DNA of 64,000 bases from an uncultured Bacilli bacterium. GTDB taxonomy: Bacteria; Bacillota_I; Bacilli_A; RF39; UBA660. The stretch lies in the NCBI GenBank assembly GCA_934096715.1, contig CAKOMQ010000002.1, positions 24,132 through 88,131 of the forward strand, in the 5' to 3' direction. Every line of letters starts with the position of its first letter. Within the stretch, counting starts at the first letter, position 1. Below are positions 1-36,604 of the stretch, one piece after another. The position numbers and the translations under genes are program-made. The notes below the pieces were generated by a model, which worked only from the letters and a program-made list of their open reading frames with translations, ran no database searches and was not told the DNA's origin.

Positions 1-399
1 ATCTGAGTCTGAATTATCTGTAATTTCATTGGTTACTGTAGCTGTTACCTTATAATTATAAGTACAATCTAGTGCTTCATCTCCTTCTGGTAAACTTGCT
101 GTTGCTAATGTGTAATTTGGATTAGTAGTTAGTGCTAGTCCACTCTCGTTTTCATTAGCATAATAAGTCTTTCCTGCATTTGCTTGACTCATTAAATTTG
201 CATCTAAATTTAGATATAACTTAGATGTTTTTGTTTGCATTGTTGGATTTCCTAAGTTGTTTGCTTTACCTGTTACCTTAGCCCCTGTCTTATCACTAGT
301 TGCATTTATACTAAAGTATGCATATGTTCCACCAATTAATAGTAATAATGCAAAAGTGAATGCTACAACTATAAGTTGTTTTTTGTTCATGTTTTTCAT
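1..399 (-). CDS. Secreted or membrane-anchored protein, 5' part only (gene runs off the window). The N-terminal signal anchor MKNMNKKQLIVVAFTFALLLLIGGTYAYFS is paralogous to the N-terminus of the 761-aa protein in its in-frame (ON) form.
   Basis: Minus-strand ATG at 397-399 preceded by RBS AAAGGATAGG. Open frame to the window edge. Lys-rich n-region plus hydrophobic core. Confidence 0.6.
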   Translation of the reverse strand, partial: MKNMNKKQLIVVAFTFALLLLIGGTYAYFSINATSDKTGAKVTGKANNLGNPTMQTKTSKLYLNLDANLMSQANAGKTYYANENESGLALTTNPNYTLATASLPEGDEALDCTYNYKVTATVTNEITDNSDSD

Positions 400-478
400 A
401 ATAACCTATCCTTTTCTAAATAAAAAAGAGAAGTATTTTACTTCCCATAAACTTACATTCAGACTCATTTTTTCAACT

Positions 479-488
479 CCCCCCCCCC
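479..488 (-). repeat. Homopolymeric tract (C10 on + strand, G10 on the gene strand) about 80 nt upstream of the start of the 1..399 gene. It sits inside a ~40-bp block shared with position 35745.
   Basis: 10 consecutive C in a ~25% GC genome. Flanks (CTTCAGAATTGAGAAAAACCTACTG10) nearly identical to the 35745 locus. Confidence 0.85.
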
Positions 489-575: not shown

Positions 576-616
576 GCGAATTAAAATGTACGTTATAGTT
601 GCGAATTAAAATGTAC
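576..616. promoter_or_regulatory. 16-bp direct repeat GCGAATTAAAATGTAC, two copies (576-591 and 601-616, period 25 bp), upstream of the G-tract of the 1..399 gene.
   Basis: Exact 16/16 match read directly. GC-containing motif in AT-rich intergenic DNA. Confidence 0.5.
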
Positions 617-31761: not shown

Positions 31762-32904
31762 TTATTTATTTCCTTCTTGATTTATTTGTGATAATGTTTT
31801 AATTTCAATTTTATATTTAGTTAATTTAGAAGCAAGTCTTATATTACTTCCTTTCTTACCTATAGCTAGACTTAAATTATCATCATCTACTATAGCTAAA
31901 GCTTCTTTCTTTTCTTCATCTAATATATTAACAATAACATTCTTAGCTGGAGCAAGTGCATTAGCTATATATTCTTTAGGATCTTCACTATATAAAATTA
32001 AATCTACTTTTTCTCCATTTAATTCTTTAAGAATACCTGCTATTCTTGAACCCCTTTCTCCAATACAAGATCCAATTGCATCTATTCTTTCATTCATACT
32101 ACCAACAGCCACTTTACTTCTAATACCTGCTTCACGAGCAACTCCATAAAGTACTATATCTCCTGATTGTAATTCTGGTATAAATGATTCAAATAATCTT
32201 TTAACAAATCCATAATGTTTTCTACTAAGTAAGATTACAGGTCCTTTATTATTAGTATCTACTTTAGTAACATATACTCTTATATTAGAACCCATTACTA
32301 TTTTTTCTCCAGGTATTATTTCGCTCTTAGGAAGTATTCCCCTAGTTCTACCTAAATCTATATAATAGTTTCTTTGATCTTCCATTGCTACTAAACCTAG
32401 CATTAATTCATATTCTTTATCACTAAATTCTTCAATAATGCTATTCTTTTCTGCTTCTCTTATTTTTTGAGTAACAACTTGTTTTGCAGTACCAGCCGCT
32501 ACACGACCAAAATCTTTTGGAGTAACTTCTTTTTCAATTGTATCTCCTACTTCACATAGTGGATCAATCTTACGAGCATCTTCTAAAAGTATTTGCGCAT
32601 CAAGATTAATTTCTGGTGCTACATCTACTTCATTACCTTCTTCATCTATAATAGTAGTTCCTTCATCAATTTCATCTACTACTACTAAATAAGAATATAC
32701 TTTGATTTCTCCTGTTTCACGATTAATATCCACTCTAACATTAGTTTTAGAATCAAAGTTCTTTTTATATGCAGTTTGCATAGCTAATTGCATTGCATCA
32801 AAAACAACATCTTCACTAATATTCTTTTCTTTAACTATATTATTAAGTGCTTTAATAAATGCTTTACTATCCATTTTATACATCCCTTTCTTTACTAATA
32901 ACAT
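31762..32904 (-). CDS. nusA: Transcription termination/antitermination factor NusA
   Basis: S1 and KH domains. Conserved position. Confidence 0.9.
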   Translation of the reverse strand: MLLVKKGMYKMDSKAFIKALNNIVKEKNISEDVVFDAMQLAMQTAYKKNFDSKTNVRVDINRETGEIKVYSYLVVVDEIDEGTTIIDEEGNEVDVAPEINLDAQILLEDARKIDPLCEVGDTIEKEVTPKDFGRVAAGTAKQVVTQKIREAEKNSIIEEFSDKEYELMLGLVAMEDQRNYYIDLGRTRGILPKSEIIPGEKIVMGSNIRVYVTKVDTNNKGPVILLSRKHYGFVKRLFESFIPELQSGDIVLYGVAREAGIRSKVAVGSMNERIDAIGSCIGERGSRIAGILKELNGEKVDLILYSEDPKEYIANALAPAKNVIVNILDEEKKEALAIVDDDNLSLAIGKKGSNIRLASKLTKYKIEIKTLSQINQEGNK

Positions 32905-33121
32905 CCATTATGTACGAATCATCACAAATATTATAATTATCAACTATTGGATTAATAATATTAGTCGCATCTACTATTTCATCTAGGTCAATACCACCTA
33001 CTTTATCAAGTACAATAGTTAAGAACTTATAGTTATTTTTATCTTCTATATAGATATCATCCACTATTAATTCTTTTTCCCCTAATATTTTAGATAATTC
33101 ACTTTTTAATTCATCAAGCAT
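32876..33121 (-). CDS. rimP: RimP-like ribosome maturation factor, N-terminal domain only (81 aa)
   Basis: DKVGGIDLDEIVDATNIINPIVD matches the RimP N-domain. Shorter than typical RimP. Confidence 0.55.
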   Translation of the reverse strand: MLDELKSELSKILGEKELIVDDIYIEDKNNYKFLTIVLDKVGGIDLDEIVDATNIINPIVDNYNICDDSYIMDVISKERDV

Positions 33122-33166: not shown

Positions 33167-33310
33167 TAAATCTGTAACTTAATTATACCACACTTTTTCT
33201 TAATTACAAACAAAAAGTCCCATATTCATTATATGAGACTTATCTATATATAAAGACATCTACTACATAAGATAGATAGAAAGCAATAGCAGATGTTCTT
33301 TATACCAATA

Positions 33311-35596
33311 TTATTCTACCAAAATGTAGGGATTATCATAACTACCATTTCCAGATTTAACAATAACATCACTTGTTAAATAAAATACCGGACGAAAAGC
33401 AACATTGCTATTAGTGAAATCGACACTTTCTAAATTACCTGATGCATTAATTGCCCAAGAACTAAATCCACCAATATTATGATCAGCACCTAATACAATC
33501 ATAGTCCATTCTGTATTAATAATGTTTCCAGAATTTTTATAATCTGTATTAGAAGGTGATAACCAACTATTTACCAAAGAATTAGAATTAATTGGAGCTG
33601 TTAAGTCTGCTTCAGCAGAAAACACATAATCACTTGCATACATCAATCCTATTTTAGCTTGATATGTTTCATATGCAGTTGGAGAACATGGAATCGAGGC
33701 ACTAGCATTAGAATAACAATAATCAGAACCAATATTATTTTCAGTTAAATAAATACCAATCAAAGGAGATACGGTAAAATCGGGTCCACCACCCATGTTG
33801 CCATAAGTACTTACACTATTCCATGTCCAATTTTCTATTTTATTTAACCATATTGTATCTTGTAAATAACTAAATTTGGTGCTTGTAAGAAAATATTTTC
33901 CATTTAATCCTTGATAAATTTCACTATAATTAAACAAGGTATCTTCATCACTAGAATTGAATGAAATTGAACCTAACTGAGAAAATTTTATAAGTTTAAC
34001 ATGGTATGTTCCACTCGAATCAGGAAAAACTCCAATTACTCGATACAGATATTGCTGATAATTTGTCTTACATGTTGCTTGATCAGTTGTTCCGAAACAT
34101 ACAAAATTAGAAACCGAAGCATCTGCCCCAACAGCACGATACCCATCATTTATTCCCAATCCAGAGTTTTCTAACAAATTTAAATATTTACCGGAATTAA
34201 TTAAATAATCATTAAAATATTTTTCTGTCTCATATGAAATAGAAGAATGTATAATAAATCCAAGGTCATCAATAACATGTACATAATATAGACCATCCGA
34301 ATTCATAGTATAATTAATTGAATTAGATGTTATACTTTTCCATGAACATCCACTTATACTAAGTTTGTTATTAATACAATACTTTGTTAATGCTCCTTTT
34401 CCTTTTGTAAAATTAGCAGTTAAAACATTTTTATTTTTTGATAAAGATATTTTTAAAGACGACTCATCACTATTAGAACTATCAATTATTAAAAATGGAT
34501 TTTCTAAAGAACCATCTCCAATTCCACCAGCAACATTACTTTTTAAATAAAAGACAGGTCTAACACTTTCAGTATTAGTATAATAATTATATCCAATAGC
34601 ACCATCACTACGTACATCCCACGAATAATATTTGCTACTCCATAAATCATGATTTGCAATAGTCCATTCGTTATTACTATCATCATTATTGCCTAAATGA
34701 ATCCAACCTGTTTTTAATGTTATTTTACTAGGACCAGTTGACATAGACAATGCAGAAGAACCTAATGATAGTGCATAATCACTCATATATAGTAATCCAA
34801 TCTTTGCTACAGGATTTGTCCATGTTCCACCGCTACAATTAATTACAGTACTATTTATATTCATGCATAATTTATCAGAACCGTTTTTATGCATTTCATT
34901 CAAATACACGCCTTTTGGAGAACTACTAGTATATGAAGGATTACTTGATGTATTAATTCTAGTTTGAGTATTAACTGCACTCCATGTCCAATTCTCTATT
35001 TTATCACTCCACATAGCATTTTGCAGATAATTATAGGATGTATTTGTTAAAAAATAACTTCCATTTAAACCTTTATACAAATCACTATTTTCCCAGTTAG
35101 TTTTTGAATTTGTTGAATTCCACTCATATCTTCCTATAGATTTATATTTAATTAATTTAACATGGTTATCTCCATTTTCATCTGCAAACACTCCGATTAT
35201 TCTAAACATATATTTATCTTGTTTTGCTATACATTCCGATTTATCTGTTGTACCGAAACAAATAAAGTTATTTGGATTTGTCGATTCATCCACTGCACCA
35301 CTTCCAACATAACGATATCCATCGCCTACCAAATTACTTTGATACAATTCTCCCATGGTTATTAATTTATCACTAAGTAATTGCTCTTTATATTTATCAA
35401 AATATAAATAACACATACTTGTTTCTGATACTTTAACTGTAGCTTTCTTTTTATCTTGATCATATAAAAGAGAATCTTCTATTTGTTTACCATTTGAAGA
35501 CATACATCCTGATTTAGTTTGATTATAAAAATATTCATAACCAGGAAAAGTAGAATTAGTACTTTCTTGATAATTACCATTTGAATCTTCTATCAT
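33311..35596 (-). CDS. Large (761 aa as annotated) Asn/Ser/Thr-rich surface-protein body made of two homologous halves. It is currently separated from its signal-anchor coding segment (35667..35807) by a +1 frame offset at the G10 tract.
   Basis: Internal duplication (YRYVGSGAVDES..FICFGTTDKSEC..HVKLIKYKS..KIENWTWSAV versus YRAVGADASVSN..FVCFGTTDQATC..HVKLIKFSQ..KIENWTWNSV). Each half ends RPVFYL.S.V...G.GS..NP[FY]. ATG 35596 has no RBS and no signal peptide. Confidence 0.7.
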   Translation of the reverse strand: MIEDSNGNYQESTNSTFPGYEYFYNQTKSGCMSSNGKQIEDSLLYDQDKKKATVKVSETSMCYLYFDKYKEQLLSDKLITMGELYQSNLVGDGYRYVGSGAVDESTNPNNFICFGTTDKSECIAKQDKYMFRIIGVFADENGDNHVKLIKYKSIGRYEWNSTNSKTNWENSDLYKGLNGSYFLTNTSYNYLQNAMWSDKIENWTWSAVNTQTRINTSSNPSYTSSSPKGVYLNEMHKNGSDKLCMNINSTVINCSGGTWTNPVAKIGLLYMSDYALSLGSSALSMSTGPSKITLKTGWIHLGNNDDSNNEWTIANHDLWSSKYYSWDVRSDGAIGYNYYTNTESVRPVFYLKSNVAGGIGDGSLENPFLIIDSSNSDESSLKISLSKNKNVLTANFTKGKGALTKYCINNKLSISGCSWKSITSNSINYTMNSDGLYYVHVIDDLGFIIHSSISYETEKYFNDYLINSGKYLNLLENSGLGINDGYRAVGADASVSNFVCFGTTDQATCKTNYQQYLYRVIGVFPDSSGTYHVKLIKFSQLGSISFNSSDEDTLFNYSEIYQGLNGKYFLTSTKFSYLQDTIWLNKIENWTWNSVSTYGNMGGGPDFTVSPLIGIYLTENNIGSDYCYSNASASIPCSPTAYETYQAKIGLMYASDYVFSAEADLTAPINSNSLVNSWLSPSNTDYKNSGNIINTEWTMIVLGADHNIGGFSSWAINASGNLESVDFTNSNVAFRPVFYLTSDVIVKSGNGSYDNPYILVE

Positions 35597-35666
35597 AACA
35601 GCAAATAAATCACTACTAGATGTAGACGCACCAAAAATATATTTATCTAAATTTTTATTATTATAA

Positions 35667-35807
35667 GATATATAAGCACCAATTATTAATAATAATTCTA
35701 TTAAAGTAAGTGCAATAATTAAAGTTCTTTTGTGTTGTTTCTCGCCCCCCCCCCAGTAGGCTTTTTAGCTTCTGGAAGGTTGCTAATAAATTAGCATTTC
35801 TTTTCAT
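35667..35807 (-). CDS. 5' leader ORF (46 codons) of the surface-protein gene: MKRNANLLATFQKLKSLLGGG... With 10 G it terminates early. With 9 or 12 G it reads MKRNANLLATFQKLKSLLGGGEKQHKRTLIIALTLIELLLIIGAYISYNN... straight into the 761-aa frame.
   Basis: Manual translation of the minus strand. Upstream ATG (35807) to the ATG at 35596 is 211 nt, which is 1 mod 3. RBS-like GAAAGTGAG upstream. -35 TTGAAA, 17 nt, -10 TATCAT upstream. Confidence 0.65.
35745..35754 (-). repeat. Homopolymeric G10 tract (C10 on + strand) inside the 5' coding region of the surface-protein gene. Candidate slipped-strand phase-variation switch.
   Basis: 10 consecutive C/G in a ~25% GC genome. Reading-frame analysis as above. 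Flanks conserved with the 479-488 locus. Confidence 0.85.
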
Positions 35808-35848
35808 GATTTCGGGGTCTCACTTTCTATTTTTATCTAAAAAAATGA

Positions 35849-35866
35849 TACTACAAATGTGTAGTA
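35849..35866. promoter_or_regulatory. 7-bp inverted repeat TACTACA-N4-TGTAGTA in the spacer of the putative promoter (-35 TTGAAA, -10 TATCAT on the minus strand) of the surface-protein gene. Candidate operator.
   Basis: Read directly from sequence. Confidence 0.4.
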
Positions 35867-35869
35867 TTT

Positions 35870-36604
35870 TCAAGTAGATGTTGTTAACTTTTTTAAAAAA
35901 TCCTTGCTTTTTAAATATAACCCTGTATAGTCTTCATAATAACAAGATAAGAATCTATTAATTTGATCTACTAACTTAGAATCTATTTTTAATGTAGATA
36001 TACTTTTAATATCTACTAAATAATACATATTTAATAGTTTTATTATTCTTAAGTCTAATAATTCTTCTCCCCTATAACAATCTATACATACTAGACCACC
36101 ACGTTCTAAAGATAAAGTTACTATATTATTCTTTTTATTACATACATTACAACTTTCTAAGTTTAATCCAACTCCTAAATAATCTAAATATTTAACTTCT
36201 ATTATATTAGTAATTATTAAAGGATCTAAATTATCATCTATTTTAATTAAAGCATTAATTAAATCTTCATATATATTTATATCATTAGATTGTTTTAATA
36301 CTTGATAAGTAAGTTCTAATAAATAAGAAGCATAACTTATTTTTAATATATCATTCTTTATATTAACAAAAGGATTAATTATATCAACACTAGAAAGAAG
36401 AGAAAGTTTATTCTCTTTATAATAAATATTAAACATACCATATGTAAGTTTCATAGTAGATGCTCTTAACTTAGACTTCATACTTTTAGCACCCTTACAC
36501 ATAACTCCTATAACACCATGTTCTTTAGTTATTATATTTATTATCTTACTACTTTCTCCATATGGAGTTTCTTTTATTATTAATCCTTCTACTACTTCTA
36601 TCAT
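35870..36604 (-). CDS. recO: DNA repair protein RecO
   Basis: N-terminal OB-fold sequence MIEVVEGLIIKETPYGESSKII. Position after era. Confidence 0.8.
   Translation of the reverse strand: MIEVVEGLIIKETPYGESSKIINIITKEHGVIGVMCKGAKSMKSKLRASTMKLTYGMFNIYYKENKLSLLSSVDIINPFVNIKNDILKISYASYLLELTYQVLKQSNDINIYEDLINALIKIDDNLDPLIITNIIEVKYLDYLGVGLNLESCNVCNKKNNIVTLSLERGGLVCIDCYRGEELLDLRIIKLLNMYYLVDIKSISTLKIDSKLVDQINRFLSCYYEDYTGLYLKSKDFLKKLTTST

Follow-up and report, generated by a model that had tools for sequence, protein, structure and literature searches.

A poly-G tract in the leader of a surface-protein gene family of an uncultured gut Bacillota as a probable phase-variation switch

Hypermutable contingency loci are a textbook trait of a few host-restricted pathogens, and phase variation in gut commensals has been studied mostly as invertible promoters. 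The pilC gene of Neisseria gonorrhoeae was reportedly found by Jonsson et al. in 1991 to carry a poly-G tract in its signal-peptide coding region. Here we analyze 64,000 nucleotides of an uncultured Bacilli bacterium (assembly GCA_934096715.1, contig CAKOMQ010000002.1, positions 24,132 to 88,131; hereafter the window), in which a minus-strand gene between recO and rimP-nusA-infB carries a run of ten G's separating a short leader from a 761-codon body in another reading frame. Comparison with related alleles makes it quite likely that this gene belongs to a multicopy surface-protein family in which slipped-strand mispairing at the poly-G tract turns expression on and off. Four of the features by which contingency loci are recognized come together here: a hypermutable 5' repeat, toggling by one unit, over-representation in surface-related genes, and length polymorphism. 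Human gut metagenomes, one of them from a Hadza sample, contain the lineage, and this and related contigs carry the sporulation genes yabP, yqfD, spoIIIAH, gerM, yunB, and yutH. In a biased collection, its IF2 stands marginally nearer to Bacillus, Staphylococcus, and Listeria (53-57% identity) than to Clostridia (about 52%).

As in Neisseria, where poly-G loci include lgt and pgtA (PMC2192423, PMC2193922), a 5' coding G homopolymer precedes the export signal of a surface- or adhesion-related protein, one-base changes shift the frame of the body, and several copies per genome would switch independently. The present system differs in its host, an uncultured, 25% G+C, sporulation-gene-bearing Bacillota, and in its unrelated protein family; moreover, its tract lies in an added leader that is absent or swapped on the same body (P0124, P0128, P0147; related proteins and loci carry P and L numbers). 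The G/C homopolymer "phasome" of Campylobacter jejuni (PMC8355987, PMC8437040) offers a second likeness, that of an AT-rich genome with rare long G/C runs (about 8 to 12) concentrated in surface-related contingency genes, both intragenic and intergenic. However, the Campylobacter tracts fall mostly in glycan-modifying enzymes, whereas those described here fall in one paralogous family of large, predicted membrane-anchored proteins with a conserved flanking leader. The poly(A) 8/9 switch of Bacillus subtilis swrA and the poly(A) tract of Listeria monocytogenes inlA (reviewed in PMC2831843) are also 5'-end homopolymer frameshift switches, in Firmicutes including a spore-former, so such a mechanism has precedent in the phylum. 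A first-pass annotation of the window, made from its letters, had seen no precedent in spore-forming Firmicutes, and because homopolymer phase variation is documented in B. subtilis swrA (PMC2831843) that claim of novelty was too strong. Yet swrA and inlA are single genes whose A tracts match the base composition, whereas here a G tract recurs across a gene family against a background of 25% G+C. The proposed mechanism is classical slipped-strand phase variation; what is new is a protein family to which no Pfam family corresponds, the host, the use of a G tract against the compositional grain across a multicopy family, and the swappable leader with its non-coding derivative.

Anatomy of the switch locus

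The locus occupies 35873 to 33215 of the minus strand and was read directly, by listing of open reading frames (ORFs), and by scripts. Its features are as follows.

35845 to 35873, minus strand: promoter-like TTGAAA-17-TATCAT, consistent in position only
35819 to 35827, minus strand: Shine-Dalgarno-like GAAAGTGAG; the counterpart in L068 is AAAGGAG
35755 to 35807, minus strand: leader coding segment MKRNANLLATFQKLKSLL, entering the tract; open in gene 1 of L066 despite 11 codon changes
35745 to 35754, minus strand: G10 homopolymer, the putative switch; the same site has G9 in L006 and L007 and G10 in L008, L071, L072, and L067
35661 to 35807, minus strand: 48-codon dead-end ORF of the G10 (predicted OFF) state, from the ORF listing and scripts
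35669 to 35725, minus strand: codons in the body frame for the predicted membrane helix TLIIALTLIELLLIIGAYI, residues 28 to 46 of the fusion, from hydropathy and an AlphaFold helix at 22 to 49
33311 to 35764, minus strand: body frame, open from after a TAA, with its first ATG at 35596, from the ORFs and the structure model
33215 to 33241, minus strand: terminator-like hairpin with T-run, from a hairpin search

The leader ATG (35807-35805), the G10 run (35754-35745; C10 on the plus strand), and the 761-aa ORF from ATG 35596 to 33311 all stand as first annotated. The run covers codons 18 to 21 of the leader ORF, which begins MKRNANLLATFQKLKSLLGGGRETTQ and, after MKRNANLLATFQKLKSLL and the ten G's, continues as GGGRETTQKNF... 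to a stop codon ending at 35661, making 48 codons, not the 46 first counted (a minor error). The two start codons are 211 nt apart (35807-35596; 1 mod 3), which places the body in the +1 frame relative to the leader ATG, as had been calculated. In the body frame, the closest stop on the 5' side is the TAA at 35767-35765, and no ATG, GTG, or TTG lies between it and 35596. In silico, tracts of G9 and G12 fuse leader and body into single ORFs of 831 and 832 aa, respectively, bearing out the prediction that one G less or two more would join them, and G8 and G11 are out of frame, ending after 28 to 29 aa. No lesion other than the tract frameshift was found in the 761-codon body.

The TTGAAA-17-TATCAT element at 35873-35845 matches the consensus at 10 of 12 positions and overlaps the stop codon of recO; it is present as annotated, but such matches are no commoner than in shuffled sequence (21 found against 23.5 expected). 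The ribosome-binding-site-like sequence noted before ATG 35807 is also there, as GAAAGTGAG (35827-35819), 11 nt 5' of the start codon, and the homologue in L068 has AAAGGAG in the same place. The gene is flanked by recO (35870-36604, ending at 35870) and rimP-nusA-ylxR-infB, where the annotation had placed it, and the hairpin at 33241-33215 follows its stop codon by 70 nt. This hairpin makes the gene look like a transcription unit of its own between recO and rimP-nusA-infB.

Long G/C runs are highly unusual in this DNA, as had been pointed out for the first tract. The window is 25.3% G+C, and runs of at least 10 G/C would be expected about 1e-4 times in 64 kb; two were observed, the second of which (479-488) the first-pass annotation had missed. 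Both G10 runs are preceded by CCTACT (two matches against 0.01 expected), and both belong to one gene family, with the same flank. No other G/C run in the window is longer than 6, and the roughly 145 kb of related loci scanned for runs held no G/C run of at least 7 except the tracts of the family. Genome and metagenome collections scanned for AAAARCCTACTG(6-7) gave only unrelated, higher-G+C chance matches, and a search of the window against Rfam found five tRNAs only, with nothing at either tract.

A single stretch of the fused N-terminus, residues 28-46 (TLIIALTLIELLLIIGAYI), is strongly hydrophobic, with a Kyte-Doolittle mean of 2.46. No such stretch occurs in the first 200 residues of the 761-aa ORF, where the Kyte-Doolittle maximum is 0.38, in agreement with the earlier statement that this ORF lacks a signal peptide. 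The description of the fused N-terminus as a "classic signal anchor" is reasonable, its basis being hydropathy and the AlphaFold helix at residues 22-49. The tract lies between an 18-codon leader and the codons for a basic stretch and the predicted membrane helix. In a G9 or G12 allele, translation from ATG 35807 reads Gly-Gly-Gly across the tract and continues with the membrane helix and then the body. In the G10 allele of the window, ribosomes stop after 48 codons, with no in-frame canonical start for the body before ATG 35596; a product begun at that ATG would be devoid of the membrane helix, so that no protein would be expected to reach the surface. The window allele would then be OFF, one slippage step from ON.

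Tract length among related alleles

All of the sequences compared are short-read metagenome assemblies, and the related DNA was obtained by exact-protein look-ups. A protein search returned 482 relatives, none of which is named and most of which come from metagenome assemblies, the top match being P0001 (99% identity, 832 aa), which is continuous through ...SLLGGGEKQHKRTL.... Its contigs, L006 and L007, have the same recO-gene-rimP locus with a G9 tract, and L008, 100% identical to the window, has G10. The window is 98.4-98.5% identical to L006 and L007, and within the gene the tract G is the sole indel that is not a multiple of three. A closer pair comes from P0122 (762 aa), a member of the 90%-identity cluster of the window protein that equals residues 71-832 of P0001 exactly and whose contigs, L071 and L072, carry G10. 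Over 5,276 bp, L006 (G9, 832-aa ORF) and L071 (G10) align with 0 mismatches and 1 gap, the tract G; over 5,289 bp, L006 and L072 align with 1 mismatch and the same tract gap. Thus, across 5.3 kb of L006 and L071, the tract alone has changed, by a single base.

The same duality recurs in the paralogues. In each of three clusters, one body allele, with 0 amino acid differences, is found both in a full-length form and in a form shorter by 70-71 aa (P0001/P0122, P0131/P0132, and P0135/P0138). The counts of OFF and ON contigs are 6 and 3 for P0001/P0122, which is the cluster of the window, 15 and 3 for P0131/P0132, and 6 and 15 for P0135/P0138. In a control cluster with a tract-less leader (P0023), all 17 of 17 contigs are full length. 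At the DNA level, 14 coding-type tracts were read, with lengths from G8 to G12. Ten of the 14 are OFF, nine with G10 (among them those of the window, L008, L071, L072, and L067, two in L009, and one in L066) and one with G8 (L010); a one-base change converts every one of the ten to an ORF of 802-832 aa, and none has any other lesion. The in-frame coding tracts comprise G9 twice, G12 once, a G10 with a T>G change at its 5' edge, and a G11 in L068 that sits in a different leader, MKKINLSKIKHTFAGGGAIL. At least three family copies lie at separate chromosomal sites in each of two metagenome-assembled genomes (MAGs), and in L066 (147-7787; GCA_964327805.1) three members stand in tandem upstream of ileS in mixed states, with a G10 tract (off), a G10 tract put in frame by the edge T>G, and a G12 tract (on). 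Comparing tract length among related genomes, as the first-pass annotation had proposed, gave both G9 and G10 at the same locus and G8, G10, G11, and G12 among paralogues; together with the G9/G10 pair free of substitutions over 5.3 kb and the three ON/OFF clusters, this supports its prediction of a phase-OFF contingency locus.

Among 65 two-domain homologues, about 15 are continuous through the tract (GG, GGG, GGGG, or the interrupted EGG/DGG); another 16 or so, with the internal Met as their called start, do not have the membrane helix, and about 6 have odd starts within the helix; more distant two-domain homologues have short leaders and no tract. About half of the tract-bearing database homologues are called from an internal Met, without the membrane helix. 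Gene callers cut short about half of these genes, which are therefore miscounted in pangenome and function tables. Tract length could be taken straight from existing metagenomic reads, which would furnish a population-level record of the predicted expression state of these surface proteins.

The polymorphism between samples suggests that tract length changes far faster by replication slippage than by point mutation, and with slippage this fast any population would be expected to hold both ON and OFF cells for each copy. Reversible switching within one clone is what we infer from these sequences. The occurrence of ON and OFF alleles in near-identical strains from different samples suggests strong fluctuating selection by antibody, phage, or host ligand, and the likely benefit would be varied exposure of ligand-binding proteins under antibody or phage pressure.

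Several points weigh against slipped-strand switching. The material consists of assembled contigs, so that heterogeneity within populations and reversibility are predictions, and long G runs are error-prone in short-read assemblies. The window allele is G10 in both copies read (the window and L008), with its 761-aa OFF product recorded on three contigs, and G10 is over-represented among OFF alleles (9/10), the non-coding tracts described below being likewise G10-G11; this excess might stem from a technical bias or from a balance of mutations at equilibrium. The promoter and the ribosome-binding site were assigned by consensus match only, and the surface location is based on hydropathy and predicted structure.

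Among the alternatives, it is improbable that the frameshift is simply decoded, with RNA polymerase slippage or +1 ribosomal frameshifting restoring the frame and tract length merely tuning the yield. Long homopolymers, chiefly those of A/T, are generally known to provoke transcriptional slippage, the Gly codons form a repetitive run, and in the fold predicted for the leader RNA the G run is paired with C-rich segments close by (z = -2.5). However, programmed sites keep a fixed slippery sequence, whereas here 8, 9, 10, 11, and 12 G's are found at equivalent positions and backgrounds that are otherwise identical carry either G9 or G10; a stimulatory element was not identified, and slippage on G/C runs is generally less documented than on A/T runs. 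Slippage or frameshifting of this kind could make the OFF state leaky without replacing the switch.

A slightly poorer account of the data, very improbable in our estimation though the chief technical concern, is that only in-frame tracts (G9 or G12) really exist and that the out-of-frame lengths are homopolymer miscalls in sequencing or assembly. In its favor, every sequence comes from a metagenome assembly, long G runs are known to be hard for short-read chemistry, and nine of ten OFF alleles share one +1 length. Yet the out-of-frame forms come from several pipelines (k141 contigs, scaffolds, and NCBI MAGs), with up to 15 contigs in one cluster, and tract lengths range from 8 to 12. The non-coding tracts, which have no frame to keep, are also G10-G11, and G10 therefore looks like a real, common length. 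Truncated forms are also absent from the tract-less paralogue, though that control has no homopolymer to miscall.

Least probable of all is a decaying pseudogene, in which the frameshift would be an inactivating mutation in a family being lost: the window and many other assemblies do have the gene out of frame, but the 761-codon body and every OFF allele examined are intact save for the tract, frameshifts occur at the tract only, the tract is conserved across paralogues even in a different leader (L068), and in-frame alleles with identical bodies coexist.

A non-coding tract and an exchangeable leader

The second G10 tract of the window lies upstream of a paralogue at the window edge, in the following arrangement.

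479 to 488, minus strand: second G10, with flank AAAA[A/G]CCTACT, 80 nt 5' of the paralogue; equivalent loci have G10, G10, and G11
428 to 446, minus strand: terminator-like hairpin GGGAAGT..ACTTCTC with T-run, between the tract and the paralogue start; stem invariant in 4/4 loci
1 to 399, minus strand: 5' portion of the paralogue gene (MKNMNKKQLIVVAFTFALLLLIGGTYAYFS...), truncated at the window edge; homologues of full length have about 520 aa and one copy of the approximately 300-aa domain

A near-invariant leader is common to four loci in different neighborhoods, namely, those of the window, L011, L069, and L070 (Hadza gut sample). It begins, some 180 nt upstream, with a strong promoter-like site, which in the window is TTGTCA-17-TATGAT with TG (694-666), followed by a segment that is homologous to the coding leader but has lost the ATG and contains stops, then the G run (G10, G10, G10, and G11 across the four loci), TTGAAAAAATGAGTCTG, the hairpin, a ribosome-binding site, and the start codon. 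In this non-coding leader, be it transcribed or promoter-proximal, the second tract cannot work by frameshifting the paralogue gene, and it probably tunes transcription or attenuation. Two other arrangements were considered and rejected: a location within the spacer of a sigma-70 promoter, as hexamer spacing is not conserved across the four loci, and a conserved upstream ORF running through the tract, as the reading frame is not conserved across them.

The poly-G tracts within promoters of the Treponema pallidum tpr genes and tp0126 (PMC7864442) are the model for this non-coding class, being runs of 7-12 G's upstream of paralogous surface-protein genes whose length alters transcription. By analogy with these tpr promoters, the second tract may tune transcription. 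Yet the T. pallidum tract occupies or adjoins the -35/-10 spacer of a promoter that has been mapped, whereas here it lies between the promoter-like site, about 180 nt upstream, and the terminator-like hairpin. Alternatively, the tract may shift the balance of an attenuator. That the non-coding tracts are centered on 10-11 may also explain why G10 is the commonest OFF length among the coding tracts.

C-rich segments at 35814-35817 (CCCC) and 35774-35779 (CCTTCC) of the minus strand are conserved in coding and non-coding leaders, and in folds of the leader RNA the G run pairs with such segments (z = -2.5 for the coding leader; z = -2.0 at the second locus, 500-515). This predicted pairing may be functional or may be trivial; because there is little sequence variation, it is indistinguishable from the affinity of any G10 for any C-rich stretch. 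A separate peculiarity of the second locus is a direct repeat, GTACATTTTAATTCGC, two copies of which, 25 nt apart, stand at 576-616 (minus strand), after the promoter-like site and before the conserved leader; none of the three related loci of this class has it.

The coding leader appears to be modular. One body allele is found with three different 5' ends: the poly-G leader, a short start MKRQKRTL..., and a third leader, MKRIFLK.... The MKRQKRTL... start has neither leader nor tract and is seen in P0124, which has exactly the body of the window, as well as in P0128 and P0147; on comparison of the sequences, it would be a locked-on form. In P0125, the sequence ...LLGGG-MKRQKKTL... looks like a leader set before the original start codon, with the Met retained. 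The 5' end thus appears to behave as an exchangeable module. The body itself also varies: L067 is 97% identical to the window on both sides, yet window positions 34962-33313 (L067 10638-12248) have no match at the nucleotide level. This stretch corresponds to the C-terminal approximately 550 codons, and the protein is about 53% identical overall, which suggests that an allele was replaced, or that mosaic recombination took place, within the gene body, superimposed on the proposed on/off switch.

These observations allow a broader reading, which we advance only tentatively. The poly-G tract might be part of a portable cassette, consisting of promoter, an approximately 65-nt leader with conserved C-rich segments, and G8-12, that is moved among paralogous surface-protein genes by recombination. 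In its coding mode the cassette would be a translational on/off switch, and in the other, derived mode it would be non-coding, precede a terminator-like hairpin, and switch transcription or attenuation; combined with the mosaic bodies, it would generate a genome-wide combinatorial surface repertoire. If this is true, an uncultured human-gut spore-former would have a repertoire comparable to that of Neisseria or Campylobacter. To our knowledge, no such surface-variant repertoire has been described in a commensal Bacillota lineage.

The encoded protein family and minor observations

An AlphaFold model of P0001 with 40 homologues (mean pLDDT 81) predicts a short helix at 2-17, a Gly linker, a long helix at 22-49, and a small beta domain at 55-137, followed by an approximately 300-aa domain, an FN3-like sandwich (about 450-525), and a second domain of approximately 300 aa. 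Searches of Pfam and NCBIfam gave no match for the fused protein at E <= 0.1 and none for its N-terminal 142 aa at E <= 10; a profile search of PDB sequences returned nothing meaningful, and tblastn against phage genomes gave no match. The nearest hint is DUF6273 (PF19789; cutoff 23.5 bits), which domain 1 matches at 8.9 bits (E 1.7) and the paralogue P0098 at 13.4 bits (E 0.069), both below the cutoff but both covering most of the profile. DUF6273 forms the C-type-lectin-like N-terminal domain of the Thomasclavelia ramosa IgA protease (PDB 9qa6; PMC12237041, PMC12402451). In contrast to that protease, the proteins described here have no peptidase domain, and their sequence match is below the Pfam threshold. 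The assignment of the domain is an inference, the aligned part of 9qa6 not being reported. The product is probably a membrane-anchored, ligand-binding surface protein with lectin-like domains.

The N-terminal signals of the family were also compared with known types. The approximately 520-aa paralogue has sub-threshold matches to a SipW-type signal (TIGR04088; 15.8 bits, cutoff 19, E 0.012) and to the signal region of Peptidase_M73 (15.7 bits against a cutoff of 22.5). In the window protein, LTLIELLLII was considered as a prepilin signal (PF07963/TIGR02532), which calls for Gly at -1, a hydrophobic residue at +1, and Glu at +5, and was set aside: there is no profile match, and LTLIE is preceded by Ala in this protein and by Ile or Leu in homologues. 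Of the prepilin motif, only the Glu within the helix (..L[IV]E[LF]..) is conserved across the family, as in type IV pilins. The paralogue P0098 has a true prepilin motif (E 8e-7) on the same C-terminal domain.

Downstream of the switch locus, the RimP-like ORF (32876-33121, minus strand) encodes just 81 aa, about half the usual length of RimP. It has a weak RimP_N match and overlaps the longest reading of the nusA ORF (31762-32904).

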